From: Candidatus Hodarchaeota archaeon
GTDB taxonomy: Archaea; Asgardarchaeota; Heimdallarchaeia; Hodarchaeales; Hodarchaeaceae
Reading direction: 5' to 3'
DNA length: 23,694 nucleotides
Assembly (NCBI GenBank): GCA_016839785.1
Contig: JAEOTQ010000010.1
Coordinates: 1 to 23,694, forward strand
Below are positions 1,282 to 21,444 of the stretch, in pieces (within the stretch, counting starts at the first letter, position 1; the number at the start of each line of letters is the position of its first letter). The position numbers and the translations under genes were made by a program. The notes beneath the pieces are model-generated. The model was not told where the DNA came from, ran no database searches, and saw only the letters and a list, made by a program, of their open reading frames with translations.

Positions 1282-3072
1282 TCAGTATAAATAGCTCTTA
1301 TCCTGGGGTATCGCATAGAGTAATTCAATGTCTTTTTCCAATTCATCCTCCAATCTTCCACATTGCTCCTCTAGCTTCTCTTGCTGCTTATTCTGAAATT
1401 TTTTTGCATAAATTTCTTGATATAGTTTCTGCAATTCTCGCGCAAGTTCTGCAATCCTCTTTGCATACTCTTTTGACTCTTTTGATTTTGGAATTAGAAT
1501 TGGAAGGTTCAAAATCGAATTCTGCACAAAATGGGGAAAATCAGTTCTTTCAGGGTCAAAGAATTTCGATTGGATATATCTCATCATTAATTTTGAGTTC
1601 AAGATTCCCAAAAGGTATTCAAGGATAATAGTTACAAATTCTTCAGTTAATTCATCTCGTCGTTTAAATATGTAAACTACCTGCGACACCCAACGATTTT
1701 GATAATCGATAACCCAATTCATGGTATTTCCAGTTTTTCTGACTAATAATTTGGGCCCTTGATACAATTCTGGAGATTTGTAGTTGATTCCTTGGCAAGC
1801 TATCGTTATATACTTGTGGTTGTGAGTGTAATATCTCTGAATTTGATACCCCGCCAAGAATGGTTTATCATATTCGGAATTTAGTGGATTTTCATGAACG
1901 ATTTCGGAATGAACATCACTAGGATCTACGAAATGATTACAGGTCGAGTTGATGCACTTCCTTCTTGTACGAGGAGGAGGATTCCAAGTTCCACAGCGTA
2001 AACATTGAAGTACTCGTCCTTTTCTCCCAATTTCTACTCCTCTTCCATTCATCACGAATGTACTAAGACGAGTGACTTCTTTTTGATCAGTGTATAGGTC
2101 CTTCTCCATTAGTTGTACCAATGCTGCATTTGGCCCTGCAAATATATCGAATTCTTTTTGAGGGTTCTTCTGAAATCGGATTTGAGGACAGTTGAATGAA
2201 TTACAATCCTCTAATTTCATCTGCAGATTGGCTAAAAGCTGTTTTTCATCTTTTGAAATTCTTGGTACGATACGAATGAGATGACACTCATCAGCTCTAA
2301 TCTTTCTAATGATTACTATCAATGAAGGTTGGATTACTCCTGGAAAAATCCCTTCTCCTAGATTCACTAAATGAGTTATTTGGCATTTTTTTAGAATGAT
2401 TTCTCGTATCTTTTCATAATTCGGATTGGTCAGAAGGGTGTTCGGAACAACAAACCCCAAGTATCCATTATCGCGTAATCCAAGTATACTTCTCTCTAAA
2501 AATAAACTCCATGAATCCATCTGTGAAGTAGCAGTTTTTAAATGCTTTAATTTCCCTTTAATTTTCGAAATATCTGCTCCCCAGGGTGGGTTCCCTAGGA
2601 TGACATGAAATTTTCCTCTAGTTTTAGGAAAATTCTTTTCCCAATCCATAAGAAACGAATCCTGAGTACTATGTGATGTGCTACGTTTTGGCAGAAGGGC
2701 ATCAAATGTTTTGACATTATCTGAATAATTCGGATACCCTAATGCTATACGTGTCATCTTAACTTTGTTTGGATCAATATCGATCCCATACAGATGATTA
2801 AAAACTACATTCTTTTTAATTTCATTAGAAGTTGAATCTTTCGCGCTTTCAGCCTCCCAGAGATTAGTAAGAAAATCTTTTGCCGCAACCAAAAATATTC
2901 CTTCCCCTACTGAAGGATCTAAAATGAACAGATCATCCTGATCGCTAATTTTTTCTTCTTGTAAATATGTCCAAATAGTATTCTTTACAATGTAATTGGC
3001 TATGTATGAAGGAGTAAAAAACTGGCCTAGTTCTTTGATTCTATCTGGAAGATTTTGTTGCATTTCTCGCAC
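1282..3072 (-). CDS. Amino (probably N6-adenine) DNA methyltransferase, gamma class (M.TaqI/Eco57I-like), with C-terminal target recognition domain
   Basis: Motif X GQFFTP, motif I ILDPSVGEGIFL, motif II LYGIDID, motif IV GNPPW, motif VI LGFVVPN. The C-terminal region is TaqI-like (KLLVRK...YLLGILNSKL). The start may be ATG 3063. Confidence 0.9.
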   Translation of the reverse strand: MREMQQNLPDRIKELGQFFTPSYIANYIVKNTIWTYLQEEKISDQDDLFILDPSVGEGIFLVAAKDFLTNLWEAESAKDSTSNEIKKNVVFNHLYGIDIDPNKVKMTRIALGYPNYSDNVKTFDALLPKRSTSHSTQDSFLMDWEKNFPKTRGKFHVILGNPPWGADISKIKGKLKHLKTATSQMDSWSLFLERSILGLRDNGYLGFVVPNTLLTNPNYEKIREIILKKCQITHLVNLGEGIFPGVIQPSLIVIIRKIRADECHLIRIVPRISKDEKQLLANLQMKLEDCNSFNCPQIRFQKNPQKEFDIFAGPNAALVQLMEKDLYTDQKEVTRLSTFVMNGRGVEIGRKGRVLQCLRCGTWNPPPRTRRKCINSTCNHFVDPSDVHSEIVHENPLNSEYDKPFLAGYQIQRYYTHNHKYITIACQGINYKSPELYQGPKLLVRKTGNTMNWVIDYQNRWVSQVVYIFKRRDELTEEFVTIILEYLLGILNSKLMMRYIQSKFFDPERTDFPHFVQNSILNLPILIPKSKESKEYAKRIAELARELQKLYQEIYAKKFQNKQQEKLEEQCGRLEDELEKDIELLYAIPQDKSYLY

Positions 3073-3170: not shown

Positions 3171-3599
3171 TTATGGCATGATATCAGTATCTTTGATTGT
3201 TTTTCTTTTCGCGTGTCGAGCAATATCAACCGCAGATTTCGATAGAGTGTAACAATAAGCTTCTAATTGCTTATTAAGATACTCGACCGCATCTCCGCTA
3301 ACTCTTTCAGCTCCAGAATCTCTTATGACTCTTTCTACACGAGCTTTTGCGAATGCTTTAGATTTGGGTCCAGTAGGAGATGATTTTGGGGTTCCCACTT
3401 TAGATACCGCAACTTTGATATCATCGCCCTGTACAGTTTTCCTTCCTGCCGCTTTGGCAAAATCAATTGCAGATTTAGATACATCTTTACCAAAATCAGC
3501 GACTAATTCGTCCATACGGGCAATACTCTTTGCAGAAACGCGTTCAGCGCCTGCACCTTTCATGATTGCTTCAATTCTTGCCTTAGCAAAGACAGCCAT
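3171..3599 (-). CDS. Archaeal histone doublet (two tandem histone folds)
   Basis: Two HMf-like repeats (FAKARIE..GAERVS..RKTVQGDDI and FAKARVE..GAERVS..RHAKRKTIKDTDI) joined by a Lys/Pro/Ser/Thr linker. AGGTGA SD upstream. Confidence 0.93.
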   Translation of the reverse strand: MAVFAKARIEAIMKGAGAERVSAKSIARMDELVADFGKDVSKSAIDFAKAAGRKTVQGDDIKVAVSKVGTPKSSPTGPKSKAFAKARVERVIRDSGAERVSGDAVEYLNKQLEAYCYTLSKSAVDIARHAKRKTIKDTDIMP

Positions 3600-8282: not shown

Positions 8283-9515
8283 ATGAAGGATATGTATCAA
8301 GTATTATCAACCTTAGGATTCACAAAGGAAGAGTCTGAAGAAAATGAAATGATTTTAGATCTCGTAGATGAGATTTGTAGAAAGGAAATCGAACCTTATG
8401 CACAAGAAATGGATGAGATGGGTTGTAAACATGATCCAAAAACTGGGAAGGTGGCTTATCCCCCACAAGCGTATAAAATCTTGAAAAAACTCGGGGAAAG
8501 CGATTTAATGGGATTAGCAATTCCCGAGAAGTACGAAGGTATGGGCCTCTCATTCGCTTTGGTAAATGCTTGCTATGAAAGATTTTCTCGGGCAGATGCA
8601 AGTACTTCATTATTGTTTGGACTTCAGAACTCCTCATCAGATGTTATTGAGCATTTTGGGACAGATGAAGCAAAACAGCAATATCTACCGAAACTTGCCA
8701 GCGGAAAAAAGTTTGGTGGACTTCTCTTTACTGAGCCTGGTTCAGGTTCAGATCTGGGGTCTTTAAAGACAAAGGTGATTGATAATGGTGATCATTACCT
8801 TGTAAATGGTTCAAAAAACTTCATTTCCAACTCAGGAATTGCCGATACATACCTATTTCTAGGTTCTACTGATCCTGAACAGAAATCAAAAGGTTTAACT
8901 GCCTTCATTCTCGATACAGAGAACAATCCTGGATTTAAAGTCTCACGGATTGAAGAGAAGCTTGGATTACATGGGAATGCGACTGGAGAGGTGACACTTC
9001 AGGATGTGAAAATCCCAAAAGAAAATATGCTTGGAAAAATGGGTCGTGGTTTCAGTGTTGTTCTTTATGAATTATCAGCCGCACGAATTGGTATTGGTGC
9101 CCAAGGAGTTGGAATAGCTGATGCGGCTTATCGGAAGGCAGTAAATTATGTGAAGTCCCGTAAGCAGTTCGGTCGTCCAATTGATAGTTTTCAGGTTACC
9201 CAATTTAAAATGGCGGATCTTTTTACAAAAATTCACACTGCACGTATTGCCTATCTCGTTGCAGCGCGCATGAAAGATAGAAATTTGGATTTTGCCGAAT
9301 ATGCAAGTATTGCCAAGTTATATGGATCTGAAATTTCGCAAGAGGTAACATATGAGGCTATTCAAATGCATGGCGGCTATGGTTATGTCAAAGAATATGA
9401 TGTAGAACGCTACTATAGAGACGCTCGTATCACTCCCATTTATGAGGGTACAAATGAAGTCCAACGAATTGTCATTTCACGTGCTGAAATGGCTAAGAAT
9501 TACGCTCCAGAATAA
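8283..9515 (+). CDS. Acyl-CoA dehydrogenase (SCAD/MCAD-type catalytic Glu)
   Basis: FTEPGSGSD, NGSKNFISN, RKQFGRPI, AIQMHGGYGY and RITPIYEGTNEVQR motifs. Confidence 0.95.
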   Translation: MKDMYQVLSTLGFTKEESEENEMILDLVDEICRKEIEPYAQEMDEMGCKHDPKTGKVAYPPQAYKILKKLGESDLMGLAIPEKYEGMGLSFALVNACYERFSRADASTSLLFGLQNSSSDVIEHFGTDEAKQQYLPKLASGKKFGGLLFTEPGSGSDLGSLKTKVIDNGDHYLVNGSKNFISNSGIADTYLFLGSTDPEQKSKGLTAFILDTENNPGFKVSRIEEKLGLHGNATGEVTLQDVKIPKENMLGKMGRGFSVVLYELSAARIGIGAQGVGIADAAYRKAVNYVKSRKQFGRPIDSFQVTQFKMADLFTKIHTARIAYLVAARMKDRNLDFAEYASIAKLYGSEISQEVTYEAIQMHGGYGYVKEYDVERYYRDARITPIYEGTNEVQRIVISRAEMAKNYAPE

Positions 9516-9540
9516 AATTCTGGAGATATCTCCATTTTAT

Positions 9541-9563
9541 CAAAAAAAAGGGGGAGGAAAAAG
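9541..9563 (-). terminator. Polypyrimidine/oligo-T archaeal terminator of the MFS gene
   Basis: The minus strand reads CTTTTTCCTCCCCCTTTTTTTTG directly after the stop codon, between convergent genes. Confidence 0.5.
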
Positions 9564-9566
9564 TGT

Positions 9567-10820
9567 TTACCGAAACACACTTGCATATACCTTATTAAGG
9601 TGAAATTCCCTGAAATTTAAAGCAAGGAATCCTATAGTGCAGATGATGATTCCAATAAACCCAATTACTAGTGCACTCTGTCTAGAAAGCTCAAAGATGT
9701 TAATCGCAGTCGAAAATGCAAAGTAAAGAGACGATCCAACTAAAGAGATTAGTGAAGAAAATGTAGCTCGCTCCATAGATGAGATCTGATCTTGAATAAT
9801 TGCCTGGGTAAGTGGAGTTCTTGAGCCTCTTGTCAATTGGCCAAATAGGGATAGAACAATGACACCTAGTAATGAAGATCCAGCCATCAAACCGAGAAGA
9901 TATATTCCGTCAATTAAGATTAGGAGGAATAGCATTTGAGAATTCGCTAATCGAGATACTTTTGATCTAATTGCCAATGAGCTTAAACCAGCAGTGAGAT
10001 TGAAAAGGGCAATGATCAATCCCATTCCTAACGCATCGACTGTATAATCGTTAATAAAAGCATGTTGTGACGCCCAAAAGCCAATACTCGAAAATACCAT
10101 ACCTGCAATCATAACGATTAATACTAATTGAAGTTCTTTTTTCGTGGAGAGGGACTTTGCAGCAGTTATTATTGCCGCTCTTGGTGATTTGGCTTGAATT
10201 CGTGGAGGTTCAGTGTAACCTAATGTAACTAGCAAGGCAAAACCAATATGTCCTAAGACTGTCAAAAATATTGGTAGCTTCAACAAGGTTACCGTAGCAA
10301 TTATTCCTCCTAGTATTGCACCAATTGCGCTAGCACCGAACATAATACTCATTCTATTAGATACTAATTTGCCAAAATACCCATTTGGATTACTTTCCCT
10401 AGTTAGCAGTGAATCATAAACAAGTGCTGTATCACTACCAGTTTTAAAGGTAATTCCTATTCCTGCTAAAAATTCTCCAATTGCAAACATCAGGAACGTA
10501 TCTCCAATTGCATAGAAGAATATTCCAGCTCCAAATAATATATGAAATAATGCCGTACATCCCTTTCGTGACCAGTAGTCTGCAAATGAACCACTTGGAA
10601 CTTCAAGTAGTAGTATTGGAATCATAAATATTCCTTGCAGTACTAGCATTTCACTGAAAGTTAAACCAGCTCGGATCCATACCAACGCGAGTACAGGGAC
10701 CAGTAACACTGTGACATCAATTCCTGTTATCTGGAATATACGTATATTCATGTTTAGCTGTTCTTGGGTTAAACCTACATGTTTCTCTAGATAGTTTCCG
10801 TCATTAAACATGTTTGTCAC
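9567..10820 (-). CDS. MFS transporter (efflux-type)
   Basis: 417 aa with about 12 TM helices, motif A-like LEVPSGSFADYWSRK, SGSD-like TGSDTALVYDSL and ERATFSS. Start is GTG 10820 or ATG 10811. Confidence 0.88.
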   Translation of the reverse strand: MTNMFNDGNYLEKHVGLTQEQLNMNIRIFQITGIDVTVLLVPVLALVWIRAGLTFSEMLVLQGIFMIPILLLEVPSGSFADYWSRKGCTALFHILFGAGIFFYAIGDTFLMFAIGEFLAGIGITFKTGSDTALVYDSLLTRESNPNGYFGKLVSNRMSIMFGASAIGAILGGIIATVTLLKLPIFLTVLGHIGFALLVTLGYTEPPRIQAKSPRAAIITAAKSLSTKKELQLVLIVMIAGMVFSSIGFWASQHAFINDYTVDALGMGLIIALFNLTAGLSSLAIRSKVSRLANSQMLFLLILIDGIYLLGLMAGSSLLGVIVLSLFGQLTRGSRTPLTQAIIQDQISSMERATFSSLISLVGSSLYFAFSTAINIFELSRQSALVIGFIGIIICTIGFLALNFREFHLNKVYASVFR

Positions 10821-10873
10821 TTCATTTCGTGTATCTGTATCATTCTATTCACCAATTGCACTATATTTACGTT

Positions 10874-10934
10874 AAAAAATCTCGGGGAGCTAATATATCA
10901 ACGCTGATTGATATAAATGGATTCACCGAAGATT
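10874..10934 (-). terminator. Long hairpin followed by a U-tract upstream of the MFS start (attenuator-like), or an operator palindrome
   Basis: Perfect inverted repeat TATATCAA (10894-10901)/TTGATATA (10908-10915), with outer pairs TCGG/CCGA and AATC/GATT. On the minus strand the 3' arm runs into a T6 tract (10879-10874). Confidence 0.5.
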
Positions 10935-10995
10935 CCCAGAAACAATGACAAGAAGGTTACACGGGGTTGGCTATTCTAAAGGATCTTCAATCTGT

Positions 10996-11067
10996 TCAGA
11001 AACACATGATAGCTGGAGTGACAAGTGCATTAAAATAATCACAAGGAGAGAAATTTAGACTTGTCAT
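10996..11067 (-). CDS. Putative 23-aa leader peptide (uORF) MTSLNFSPCDYFNALVTPAIMCF
   Basis: ATG 11067 to TGA 10996, preceded by GGTTGG and by a TTTTAAAA TATA-like box at about 11106-11113. Lies inside a leader with several possible pairings. Confidence 0.4.
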   Translation of the reverse strand: MTSLNFSPCDYFNALVTPAIMCF

Positions 11068-11133
11068 TGATTTTCCAACCGCACTCGCTTCTGCAAACTC
11101 TGATTTTTTAAAAGTTTGTCTCTTGACAGTTTG

Positions 11134-11280
11134 CTACTCTTCTTTTATTAGTCGCTGAAATATCCTTGGACGCAAATAGAAGTAATATATGATTGCTGCT
11201 GAAATTAGCATAAAACCACTTACCAAGAATAGCAATTGTTCTATCGTAACTGATTGGGCATAGAAGTAAAATTTTGTCAT
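11134..11280 (-). CDS. 48-aa single-pass membrane microprotein
   Basis: Not in the ORF track: MTKFYFYAQSVTIEQLLFLVSGFMLISAAIIYYFYLRPRIFQRLIKEE*. One TM helix followed by a basic patch (positive-inside pattern). AGGAG upstream. Confidence 0.65.
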   Translation of the reverse strand: MTKFYFYAQSVTIEQLLFLVSGFMLISAAIIYYFYLRPRIFQRLIKEE

Positions 11281-11341
11281 TTCATGAATAACTCCTGATA
11301 TTTTTCCTCTTTTGAGTTTAAAATAAAGTGAAAATATAGAT

Positions 11342-11890
11342 CTATTCCAAAGAACTGTCCAATACTTGAGTCAAAATCTCTGTGTAAATTGTTAAATCTC
11401 TCTTACTGAACAGTACGAAGTGTACTTCACGAATGCTATTACTTGGTAAGCAATCTAATACAGTATCTATGGCAATCGGGGCCGCTTTCTGGATTGGAAA
11501 ACCATAGATTCCCGTTGATATTGAGGGGTAGGATATCGAGGTAGCTCCTGCGAATTCTGCTTGTTGAAATGAATTCCGATAAGAATTTTTTAGCAATTCT
11601 GATTCATTCTGGTCTCCTCCCCTCCATATTGGGCCAGGTGTATGAATTACCCACATTGCTTTTAGTAAACCGCCATGTGTGACTTTAGCTTCACCTGTTT
11701 TACACCCTTGGGGGTATTTTGCTATACACTCTTCAAGGATTTCAGGCCCTCCAGCCCGATGAATTGCACCATCTACGCCTCCTCCCCCCCTTAATGAAGT
11801 ATTAGCTGCGTTAACTATCGCATCCGTTTCTTCTAGAGTAATATCACTCTGAATTAATAGAATTTTTGTGCTTTTAATTGTAACTTCCAT
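11342..11890 (-). CDS. ymdB: Macrodomain O-acetyl-ADP-ribose deacetylase / ADP-ribosyl hydrolase (YmdB/MacroD-like)
   Basis: SDIT, DAIVNAAN, GGGGVDGAIHRAGG, VIHTPGP and PSISTGIYGFP motifs. Confidence 0.93.
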   Translation of the reverse strand: MEVTIKSTKILLIQSDITLEETDAIVNAANTSLRGGGGVDGAIHRAGGPEILEECIAKYPQGCKTGEAKVTHGGLLKAMWVIHTPGPIWRGGDQNESELLKNSYRNSFQQAEFAGATSISYPSISTGIYGFPIQKAAPIAIDTVLDCLPSNSIREVHFVLFSKRDLTIYTEILTQVLDSSLE

Positions 11891-11904
11891 ATGTTCATCA
11901 AGCT

Positions 11905-20532: not shown

Positions 20533-21444
20533 TTAGGATTCGCTCTTTGTTGACTGAGGTTGGATAATGGAAGAATAAGATTTTCCCTTTTGAATCTCTG
20601 AAATCAATCCTTGAAGTAAAGGATCAAAACCAAATCCTGTTGAAGATTCAGTTTCGTATATTAATCTAATAGGTACAAGCAATTTTCTAGAAAGATATCT
20701 CCTGACGTTCTTAACTGATCCGATATCAATTTTATTAGCAGCAATCACATATGGTAAATCCCAGAAGTTACGAATTTCCTCTAACAATTCTTTCGATGCA
20801 TTGATAGATTGACTTTCTGAAATATCTATAAAAAAGATGTAACCATCAGATTCTTTACTAAATTTCCACCAGTGTTGCTGGAAGGCCATTCCGAGATCGT
20901 AAAAACGTAACTGTTGATTTACTGGGGAGTTCTCTTGTGTAACTATGTTTACTAGTTTCGTGGGTTCATATGTGTTGAAACCTGCTAGCTGCTGGTCTGT
21001 TAGATATTGTTGAACAAATGTAGTTTTTCCTGAACGAGCAAGTCCTAATAATGAAATACGTAACGTTTTCGAGGAGTCCACCATTCTAACAATCGTATCA
21101 CAAATGTCCTGAAAATCCCTTTGGAACGAAGATTGATGTTTTTCAAAGAGGTCGGATTTGTACGACTTTCCTAGTAGTTTTAAAAACGATTGAAGCTTTG
21201 AAAAAGAAGTGTTGATACTAGCAATTGCTACCAAAAGTACTTGTTGTGACTTTAAATAGGAAAAGGCTAGGAGTTTATCACCACAAACCCATCCTTGAAC
21301 AGGCCTAGCATTTTCTTTCTGAATGAGCAGGCTTCGAATTGCAGGCAAGGAAATCGAAAGTTGACAATCATCGGGTGTAACAGAAATTGTCGAAACAATT
21401 TCTTGATTATTGTCATCATAAACCTTGACTGAAAGCAATGTCAT
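20533..21444 (-). CDS. Longin-like domain fused to an Arf-related small GTPase
   Basis: G1 GLARSGKTT, G2 YEPT, degenerate G3 DLGM, Arf-like WWKFSKESDGYIFFID and G4 NKID. The N-terminal ~120 aa show a beta-beta-alpha-beta-beta-beta-alpha-alpha pattern (longin assignment inferred). Confidence 0.8.
   Translation of the reverse strand: MTLLSVKVYDDNNQEIVSTISVTPDDCQLSISLPAIRSLLIQKENARPVQGWVCGDKLLAFSYLKSQQVLLVAIASINTSFSKLQSFLKLLGKSYKSDLFEKHQSSFQRDFQDICDTIVRMVDSSKTLRISLLGLARSGKTTFVQQYLTDQQLAGFNTYEPTKLVNIVTQENSPVNQQLRFYDLGMAFQQHWWKFSKESDGYIFFIDISESQSINASKELLEEIRNFWDLPYVIAANKIDIGSVKNVRRYLSRKLLVPIRLIYETESSTGFGFDPLLQGLISEIQKGKSYSSIIQPQSTKSES

Follow-up and report, generated by a model that had tools for sequence, protein, structure and literature searches.

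Regulation by leader open reading frames (ORFs) with re-pairing of the RNA is a textbook feature of bacteria, in which transcription and translation are coupled. The genes ermC and cat and the major facilitator superfamily (MFS) gene cmlA carry translation-attenuation leaders, start-codon pseudoknots occur in the autoregulated mRNAs of the Escherichia coli alpha operon (S4) and phage T4 gene 32, and the preQ1 riboswitch is an H-type pseudoknot. To our knowledge, few cis-regulatory RNAs of any kind have been found in archaea. In Bacillus subtilis, the bmrB leader has been described as controlling bmrBCD, which encodes a multidrug ABC exporter, by ribosome-mediated transcription attenuation (PMC4191407). 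Here we describe a leader upstream of an MFS transporter gene in a 23,694-nt stretch of DNA from a Candidatus Hodarchaeota archaeon (contig JAEOTQ010000010.1; the whole stretch is hereafter called the window). On the minus strand, on which all leader features are read, a spacer of 310 nt separates this gene from a 48-codon ORF (11280-11134) and contains a short upstream open reading frame (uORF). Judging from its sequence relatives, this is a conserved, apparently pseudoknotted leader with a uORF, which accompanies one transporter subfamily of Heimdall-group archaea and for which the best-supported reading, and the one we lean towards, is a translation-sensing cis-regulatory switch of the MFS mRNA.

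The original prediction, made from the window sequence, had read the spacer as a candidate leader-peptide attenuator or RNA switch in front of an MFS exporter. Every feature it named was located at the position given, on the minus strand (Table 1), including the TATA-like sequence near 11110, and a repeat finder reproduced the complementarities. Taken alone, the window sequence proves nothing about such a leader; the comparison with relatives decides, and once they are compared the core of the observation lies far beyond chance. Rfam yielded no match at gathering score across the window and, at E values up to 10, two sub-threshold, chance-level matches in 10700-11400. C/D box small RNAs (sRNAs) have a C box RUGAUGA, a D box CUGA and a terminal stem. 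This class was rejected: the leader has AUGACAA, in which the C-box GA is missing, neither box is conserved (relatives have TCTAA or TATAA in place of the window's CUGA at the uORF stop) and the Rfam match of snR75 to the leader reached 13 bits against a threshold of 40.

The leader in the window genus

Orthologues of the MFS protein in the same genus share 48-83% identity, and the leader was found in 17/17 same-genus genomes with an assembled 5' end of the gene (17 of the 22 genus genomes, the window's own included); in the other five the orthologue is missing or present as a 3' fragment alone. A pattern search of 24 genomes of the order returned the leader in the 17 genus genomes and four chance matches elsewhere. 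The same kind of search gave 19 loci in all species genomes (16 true, 3 chance) and eight in metagenomes (3 true, 5 chance), the latter adding one distinct new sequence. The comparison set for the family of the window leader, f1, consists of 18 distinct leaders, 17 from the genus genomes and one from a distinct metagenome contig. The metagenome-assembled genomes bearing the leader are assigned to Hodarchaeota, Heimdallarchaeota or Promethearchaeota, that is, to the Asgard archaea.

Every true copy adjoins an MFS orthologue on its upstream side and no copy was found elsewhere. The 4.04-Mb assembly holds no second leader copy, on which ground a repeat or mobile element was rejected. The genus leaders align with that of the window nearly free of indels, while sequence upstream of the TATA box does not align, and conservation begins at the GGTTGG strand. 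In another family of the same order the Shine-Dalgarno (SD) region is similar and no homologous leader was recognised by eye. One MFS orthologue in that other family, at G022:C626:3218-4367, matches in two pieces (query residues 26-142 and 147-382), possibly split by a frameshift, and no homologous leader was found upstream of it.

The predicted 23-codon uORF is conserved throughout the set. An ORF starting with ATG is present at the same place in 18/18 f1 leaders with its stop (TGA or TAA) in the same alignment column, its length being 23 codons in 16 of them and 20 in two, by an in-frame 9-nt deletion. The uORF frame alone is open in all, the two other frames carrying stops in 16/16 and 14/16 cases. 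A hidden protein gene on either strand was rejected, as no frame spanning the leader is open in all 18 sequences. In several lineages Pro18 and Leu15 stay the same despite synonymous codon changes, the uORF sequence varies over most of its length, and no peptide in f1 or f3, the second family described below, contains codon runs of the regulatory kind.

Among the helices (strand names as in Table 1), A:C joins the segment containing the uORF start codon to a downstream strand. It was the sole helix returned by RNAalifold on 16 leaders, and an unbiased scan for antiparallel column stacks in the 18-sequence alignment recovered A:C with 9 columns (100% canonical) and A:B with 8 (96%); 20 column-permuted alignments never gave more than 4 columns. 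A:C is paired in 97.8% of cells and 4/10 of its pairs have changed on both sides (GACAAG/CTTGTC, GACGAG/CTCGTC, GATGAG/CTCATC), so that the perfect 10-nt complement of A noted in the window is kept in relatives with compensatory changes. H3, formed by S3a and S3b with an inner extension, is paired in 89.4% of cells, again with 4/10 pairs changed on both sides. For A:C and H3 jointly, 0/500 shuffles matched the observed pairing, the number of double-change cells or the covariation score, and controls with slid partners reached 53% paired at most. A:C also holds 8 G-U cells, which fit an RNA of the minus strand and not a DNA palindrome.

Segment A can pair with B or with C using the same nucleotides, and these pairings are thus mutually exclusive. 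The 8-nt alternative A:B is kept in relatives, being paired in 95.8% of cells with 1/8 pairs changed on both sides (3 cells), but it barely differs from shuffles except in covariation score (3/500). The pairing of GGTTGG with CCAACC, H1, is likewise kept: over the 18 leaders, 123/126 cells of its 7-position core are paired, with flanking pairs that vary. Variation in the core amounts to the double change AGTTGG/CCAACT in two related genomes, one wobble and two mismatches. The SD-like GGTGAT was considered as a partner of B and dropped, the match being 5-6 bp by eye with register shifts.

Two further structures of the original prediction survived in part or not at all. The long hairpin ending in T6 retains the local hairpin H4, present in 18/18 leaders with differing stem sequences (mean z -2.2 against mononucleotide shuffles; z < -1 in 17/18), and the T tract, kept as at least T5 in 17/18 f1 leaders (T5-T9; the remaining one has TTTTATTT); its base is not conserved. 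The stem over the uORF stop (TTCTGAA/TTTAGAA plus GCTAT/ATAGC) is present in the window and paired in 45% of cells across leaders, equal to slid and shuffled controls.

In 24/24 leaders whose sequence extends that far (17 f1, 7 f3), the first helix strand is preceded at a distance of 24-34 nt by a TATA-like box. Archaeal TATA boxes precede the start of transcription by about 25 nt, which places the predicted transcript start 1-3 nt before S1a. With that start, H1 would tie up the extreme 5' end of the transcript, and 9-14 nt devoid of an SD sequence would precede the uORF. The AUG in the window lies 13 nt downstream of the start of GGTTGG, also without an SD sequence.

Table 1. Features of the leader and the adjoining transporter gene in the window
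Feature	Position	Strand	Remarks
TATA-like box TTTTAAAAAA	11113-11104	-	candidate leader promoter; predicted transcript start ~11083-11080
S1a, GGTTGG(A), 5' strand of helix H1	11080-11074 (GGTTGG 11080-11075)	-	predicted RNA 5' end
A, CAATGACAAG, contains uORF AUG	11069-11060	-	5' strand of A:C; shifted 3 nt, of A:B
uORF, 23 codons + TGA, peptide MTSLNFSPCDYFNALVTPAIMCF	11067-10996	-	ORF kept at the same place in 18/18 f1 leaders
B, ACTTGTCA, inside uORF (codons Leu-Val-Thr)	11026-11019	-	alternative local partner of A; 8-nt complement
S3a, TTGAAGAT, 5' strand of helix H3	10990-10983	-	begins 5-7 nt past uORF stop
S1b, CCAACC, 3' strand of H1	10970-10965	-	
C, CTTGTCATTG, 3' strand of A:C	10952-10943	-	perfect 10-nt complement of A; 12 nt past S1b
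S3b, ATCTTCGG (block segment ATCTTC), 3' strand of H3	10933-10926	-	
H4, local hairpin TATATCAAT / GTTGATATA, 4-nt loop	10915-10894	-	hairpin in 18/18 leaders
Oligo-T tract, T6	10879-10874	-	candidate archaeal terminator; alternatively or additionally a TATA box
SD-like GGTGA	10853-10849	-	GGTGA(T) kept in most leaders
8-codon mini-ORF, ATG 10843	10843-10817	-	stop overlaps MFS SD GAAGTGA (10823-10817)
MFS transporter gene	10811-9567	-	start most likely ATG 10811; in-frame GTG 10820 falls in SD

Other families and the transporter gene

In the second family, f3, the MFS orthologues have diverged to about 30% identity, and a leader of unrelated sequence and the same layout precedes the gene in 8/8 genomes with an orthologue. 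A TATA box is followed about 25 nt on by an H1-like strand beside the AUG, a uORF of 25-29 codons and then the downstream complements. The first strands read AGAGUUAAG, GAGUUAUG or GUGUUACG and their complements past the uORF stop CUUAACUCU, CAUAACUC or CGUGACAC. In the counterpart of A:C a downstream strand is complementary to uORF codons 3-6 (for example AAGAAUGGACGA with UCGUCCAUUCUU), and in that of H3 the last strand complements a stretch beginning -2 to +5 nt from the uORF stop. The strand order and the short linkers are the same as in the window genus.

We compared duplexes between cognate segments with cross-family duplexes, the segments being defined by the positions of the AUG and the stop alone. 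The three cognate duplexes had energies of -11.7, -16.0 and -12.2 kcal/mol, versus -7.0 (standard deviation 1.9), -11.7 (2.7) and -7.9 (2.3) kcal/mol for the cross-family ones, and the cognate partner was better than all cross-family partners in 16/23, 16/23 and 14/23 sequences, respectively. A run of U4-U5 closes the 3' strand of H3, or follows it, in 4/7 of the f3 leaders analysed. This hints that in f3 the H3 stem would resemble a terminator and that its formation could be precluded by a ribosome at the uORF stop. In the f3 loci L086-L090 the interval from the fold to the MFS start contains a small hairpin UCUCC-UAUU-GGAGA, made of an anti-SD and an SD-like word and located ahead of the true SD, GGAG; two f3 genomes have another pyrimidine stretch with which this true SD could pair. 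The anti-SD hairpin suggests a translational output in f3.

A:B-like pairings with other sequences occur in f3 and in a further family, f7. One f7 genome has a 25-codon uORF with a similar C-terminal motif and strong A:B-like and H3-like helices; a clear H1 or A:C was not found in it. Another, in which the MFS gene has internal stops, has no recognisable uORF leader, and of the seven f5 orthologues found (25-31% identity) the three inspected (L107, L111, L112) showed no such leader. A C-terminal motif of the uORF peptide resembling [AILV]-V-x-T-P recurs across families. The transporter subfamily is present in 33/400 sampled genomes of the phylum, all in the Heimdall-group class, and the 26 leaders found, in three families, are confined to this class of Asgard archaea and adjoin this one subfamily.

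The downstream gene matches Pfam MFS_1 (E 1.6e-12). We found no curated MFS subfamily for it, the single NCBIfam match being sub-threshold (HP1165 family, 18.5 bits versus 700), no relative in the PDB by sequence, and only generic 'MFS transporter' clusters among its Atlas neighbours. The word exporter is for these reasons a guess, and neither it nor a role in drug resistance finds support beyond the generic MFS_1 match. Other genes in the window have SD sequences of the AAGTGAA or AGGTGA type 7-9 nt before their ATG, so that ATG 10811 is the likely start of the MFS gene, with GAAGTGA as its SD. GTGA-N5/6-ATG is kept at the MFS start in all leaders. AAGTGAA precedes the genes starting at 8283, 16520 and 23608 as well as the MFS gene and looks like the usual SD form in this genome. 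The mini-ORF at 10843-10817 is kept in 4/5 of the closest genomes, is shifted by a 7-nt deletion in the fifth and is missing from the remaining genus genomes, in which no start codon follows a strong SD-like AGAAGGTGAT.

The 48-codon ORF on the other side of the leader has an SD (CAGGAG) and one hydrophobic stretch, MTKFYFYAQSVTIEQLLFLVSGFMLISAAIIYYFYLRPRIFQRLIKEE, and its stop lies 20 nt before the leader TATA box. The four closest genomes aligned share it, YYFYLRPR included; neither Pfam nor NCBIfam gave a match, and it is probably a real small membrane protein. A gene 0.8 kb upstream has weak TrmB/MarR-type helix-turn-helix matches below curated cut-offs. The window also encodes a P-type ATPase and acyl-CoA dehydrogenases. 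Three other minus-strand genes code for a 142-residue protein with two histone folds (3171-3599), an Arf/Ras-type GTPase extended at its N terminus by about 120 residues (20533-21444) and an Eco57I/MmeI-type N6 DNA methyltransferase with a TaqI-like specificity domain (1282-3072).

Proposed switching and rival explanations

The strands follow one another in the order S1a, A, S3a, S1b, C, S3b, that is, 1-2-3-1'-2'-3', and any two of the three long-range helices cross. H1 and A:C have the order 1-2-1'-2' of an H-type pseudoknot in both f1 and f3. In the window, the linker from S1a to A measures about 5 nt and that from S1b to C about 12 nt; duplex searches across both families give about 0-9 and 0-12 nt. 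This order implies a closed form in which H1 and A:C would make an H-type pseudoknot with the uORF in its large loop, and the third crossing helix, H3, could connect the 3' tail with that loop's end. We take the closed form to be a real fold, since its three helices are supported in two families and the downstream strands form a compact block, and suppose that it clamps the uORF at its 5' end, its start and the region past its stop.

From this arrangement we infer the start site, uORF translation, fold switching, termination at the T tract and the direction of control as follows. Transcription would start about 25 nt past the TATA box, at GGTTGG, and A would pair locally with B as an early intermediate before C is transcribed. 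The downstream block (CCAACC, CTTGTCATTG, ATCTTC) would then pair with the 5' end of the RNA, the start segment and the post-stop stretch. An initiating ribosome would cover or melt S1a and A and a terminating one would cover S3a, while the closed fold would in turn block initiation at the uORF; since the ribosome must cover the strands and the fold must block initiation, translation and fold would exclude each other. The state of the fold would be relayed to the MFS gene, most likely through the frequency with which RNA polymerase reads through the oligo-U tract.

The prediction of a uORF-dependent RNA switch finds partial support in the uORF, in compensatory changes and in alternative and crossing pairs that are kept, also in a second family; it fails for the terminator hairpin and for sequestration of the ribosome-binding site. 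An attenuation step at the U tract is plausible, though in our view less likely than not. Poly-U has been described as an archaeal terminator signal (PMC10450193). The tract lies 115 nt past the uORF stop, and T5-T8 tracts follow the stop codons of other window genes. The U run is kept in 17/18 leaders without the stem directly before it that marks an intrinsic terminator, as the adjoining stem is paired no better than controls. A bacterial-type terminator hairpin abutting the T tract is thus not conserved, and a scan of this archaeal sequence with the bacterial consensus gave 0 terminators. As archaeal terminators may need no stem, the lack of one lowers the case for membership among attenuators and leaves the analogy intact.

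Twenty sequencing runs hold part of the stretch, one of them a metatranscriptome library. Over 9500-11900 this run gave a single 151-nt contig at 10865-11015, reaching from inside the uORF across the T tract, a weak hint of a bridging transcript given that contigs show neither ends nor strand and that the library may contain DNA. The remainder of that span, the MFS gene included, had no coverage in the run, from which nothing follows. The contig differs from the window by one letter at 10902 (plus-strand C>T), which turns a G-U pair of H4 into A-U.

Several results weigh against a translation-sensing switch. Some concern the fold: the minimum free energy of the 331-nt leader (-67.1 kcal/mol) does not stand out from that of shuffled sequences (-66.1 +/- 4.7; z -0.22), with 41/100 shuffles equally stable. 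The f1 sequences are kin, so the shuffle controls overstate significance, and the f3 helices were derived from a duplex search on the very sequences in which they were then assessed. H1 is nearly invariant within the genus and mismatched in two genomes. A candidate fifth helix between CUGAAAU (between S3a and S1b) and AUUUCAG (after H4) is paired in 76% of cells, a level reached by 1/500 shuffles, and provides no convincing link from the fold to the T tract. Among the checks that the original prediction had proposed, uORF conservation and compensatory changes came out in its favour, while fold stability did not exceed that of shuffles and the Rfam scan was without a match.

Others concern the output. 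The base of the long hairpin adjoining T6 is paired in 51% of cells, equal to slid and shuffled controls, and archaeal termination is, as far as we know, not dependent on hairpins. Among the 18 leaders, the best duplex partner of the MFS start region comes from no fewer than 7 different segments; the predicted pairing with the leader (9/10 with 11024-11015) is present in the window and has no consistent counterpart in relatives. Over 10 nt, the T-tract region GATTTTTTAA (10872-10881, minus strand) matches the reverse complement of the leader TATA region (11102-11111) exactly, and for this reason the tract could itself be a TATA box, for a separate MFS promoter or for antisense transcription.

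The uORF gives further grounds for doubt. Its codon-position entropy (0.55/0.86/0.77) is not coding-like, its excess of synonymous over nonsynonymous changes is modest (287:475, versus 233:705 and 351:648 in the other frames), and the codons GCA, AAT, TGT and GTG are invariant or nearly so without synonymous change, so that RNA constraints could explain part of its conservation. Such non-coding-like variability, with few synonymous changes in conserved codons, suggests that the peptide may matter little. In our reading a uORF of fixed position and length is required, its peptide is weakly constrained and RNA-level constraints overlap the coding ones.

A different, unlikely account makes the element a separate small gene of about 205 nt, from GGTTGG to the T tract, with its own transcription unit for a small RNA or a pseudoknot-gated microprotein mRNA. 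The unit would end at the T tract, and transcription of the MFS gene would begin at a promoter of its own, for which that T-rich box might serve. Its product could be the 23-residue peptide, which is largely hydrophobic and might, for instance, act as a partner of the transporter or be carried by it. The element does have its own TATA box and a conserved T tract of the kind found after other genes, this tract resembles the leader TATA box, and the MFS gene has its own SD. The synonymous codons at Pro18 and Leu15 and the C-terminal motif shared across families would also fit a functional peptide. The peptide is otherwise poorly constrained, however, and 20-23 residues are short for a membrane helix. 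Furthermore, the genes further upstream differ between genomes, yet the element is found solely next to the MFS orthologue. From the T tract to the MFS start the leaders share no second promoter motif, the spacing from the T tract to GGTGA varies from 13 to 24 nt among them, and the library contig bridges the T tract, a weak point.

Somewhat less probable still is an RNA that binds a ligand or a protein, in which the pseudoknot would be a riboswitch aptamer or a regulator site, while the small ORF would serve only as expression platform or result from the sequence constraints. Pseudoknot aptamers typically have such crossing helices, joined by short conserved linkers, the four near-invariant codons point to constraint at the RNA level, and the gene with weak helix-turn-helix matches lies 0.8 kb upstream. 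Yet no Rfam family matches, and the ORF is kept in three families with differing sequence and length, its AUG at the first two helices and its stop by the third. The in-frame indel preserves this ORF, and the large loop of the knot, comprising most of the uORF, is variable. That the complementarities arose by chance in an AT-rich spacer, or are DNA repeats such as TGACAAG operator half-sites or a mobile-element remnant, is very improbable: the fold energy equals that of shuffles and TGACAA-like words stand at three nearby gene starts, but compensatory changes run across 18 leaders, the genome holds no other copy, and the analogous layout recurs in f3 with other sequences, and the operator reading was rejected on the strand-specific G-U pairs and on the complementarity that f3 keeps with different words.

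The translation-sensing switch might belong to a new archaeal class, a tentative idea in which a three-helix crossing pseudoknot clamps a uORF and ribosome loading or stalling lets the polymerase pass the oligo-U tract. The ribosome would load during transcription, or stall near the conserved Pro-containing C-terminus or the stop, and nascent-peptide arrest might report the substrate of the transporter. Among top-ranked literature results, no archaeal leader-peptide, uORF or attenuation element and no Asgard structured RNA like this one was found. If the switch is real, it would provide the first case of leader-peptide attenuation carried out by the archaeal, eukaryote-like machinery for transcription and termination, in a group (Heimdall-group Asgard) that contains the closest archaeal relatives of eukaryotes. 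The leader offers a mutable construct for asking whether a translating ribosome can steer archaeal RNA polymerase and poly-U termination, and it bears on the initiation of short-leader mRNAs without an SD in these archaea and on the cargo of an uncharacterised MFS transporter. The three-way crossing topology is unusual and relevant to research on RNA structure.

Comparison with known leader systems

As in attenuators, a leader ORF is conserved, in 18/18 f1 and 8/8 f3 leaders, its translation being predicted. Membership in the bmrB, erm/cat/cmlA and trp/tnaC types fails on the terminator stem, the regulatory codons and the sequestration of the ribosome-binding site. Like the Asgard leader, those of ermC, cat and cmlA have a short ORF, in their case before a resistance or efflux gene, and their RNA re-pairs upon ribosome stalling. 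Their hairpin sequesters the downstream ribosome-binding site, whereas that of the MFS gene has no conserved partner and the Asgard helices hold the uORF's own 5' end, start and post-stop region.

In the trp/his and tnaC leaders, too, a leader ORF goes together with one segment that can pair in alternative ways (here A, with B or with C) and with a U tract upstream of the structural gene. Unlike them, the Asgard leader has no runs of regulatory codons and no hairpin abutting the U tract; it presents a predicted pseudoknot in place of nested 1:2/2:3/3:4 hairpins, and it would work with archaeal transcription and termination machinery.

The alpha operon, gene 32 and preQ1 systems resemble the proposed fold in that ribosome access to an ORF is controlled by a pseudoknot that incorporates its initiation region. 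There it is the main gene that the knot gates, and the ligand is a protein or metabolite, whereas the Asgard knot would gate a 23-codon uORF, spans it end to end and has no known ligand.

The bmrB leader, as described, resembles the Asgard leader in that a small ORF just upstream of a transporter gene overlaps alternative pairings and that translation would decide downstream transcription. It is bacterial, with a terminator inside the small ORF and three nested alternative stem-loops. In the Asgard leader, known here from sequence, the helices cross and the U tract lies beyond the ORF without a conserved adjoining stem. By analogy of function, we consider the bmrB leader its nearest counterpart, followed by the erm/cat/cmlA and the trp/tnaC leaders.

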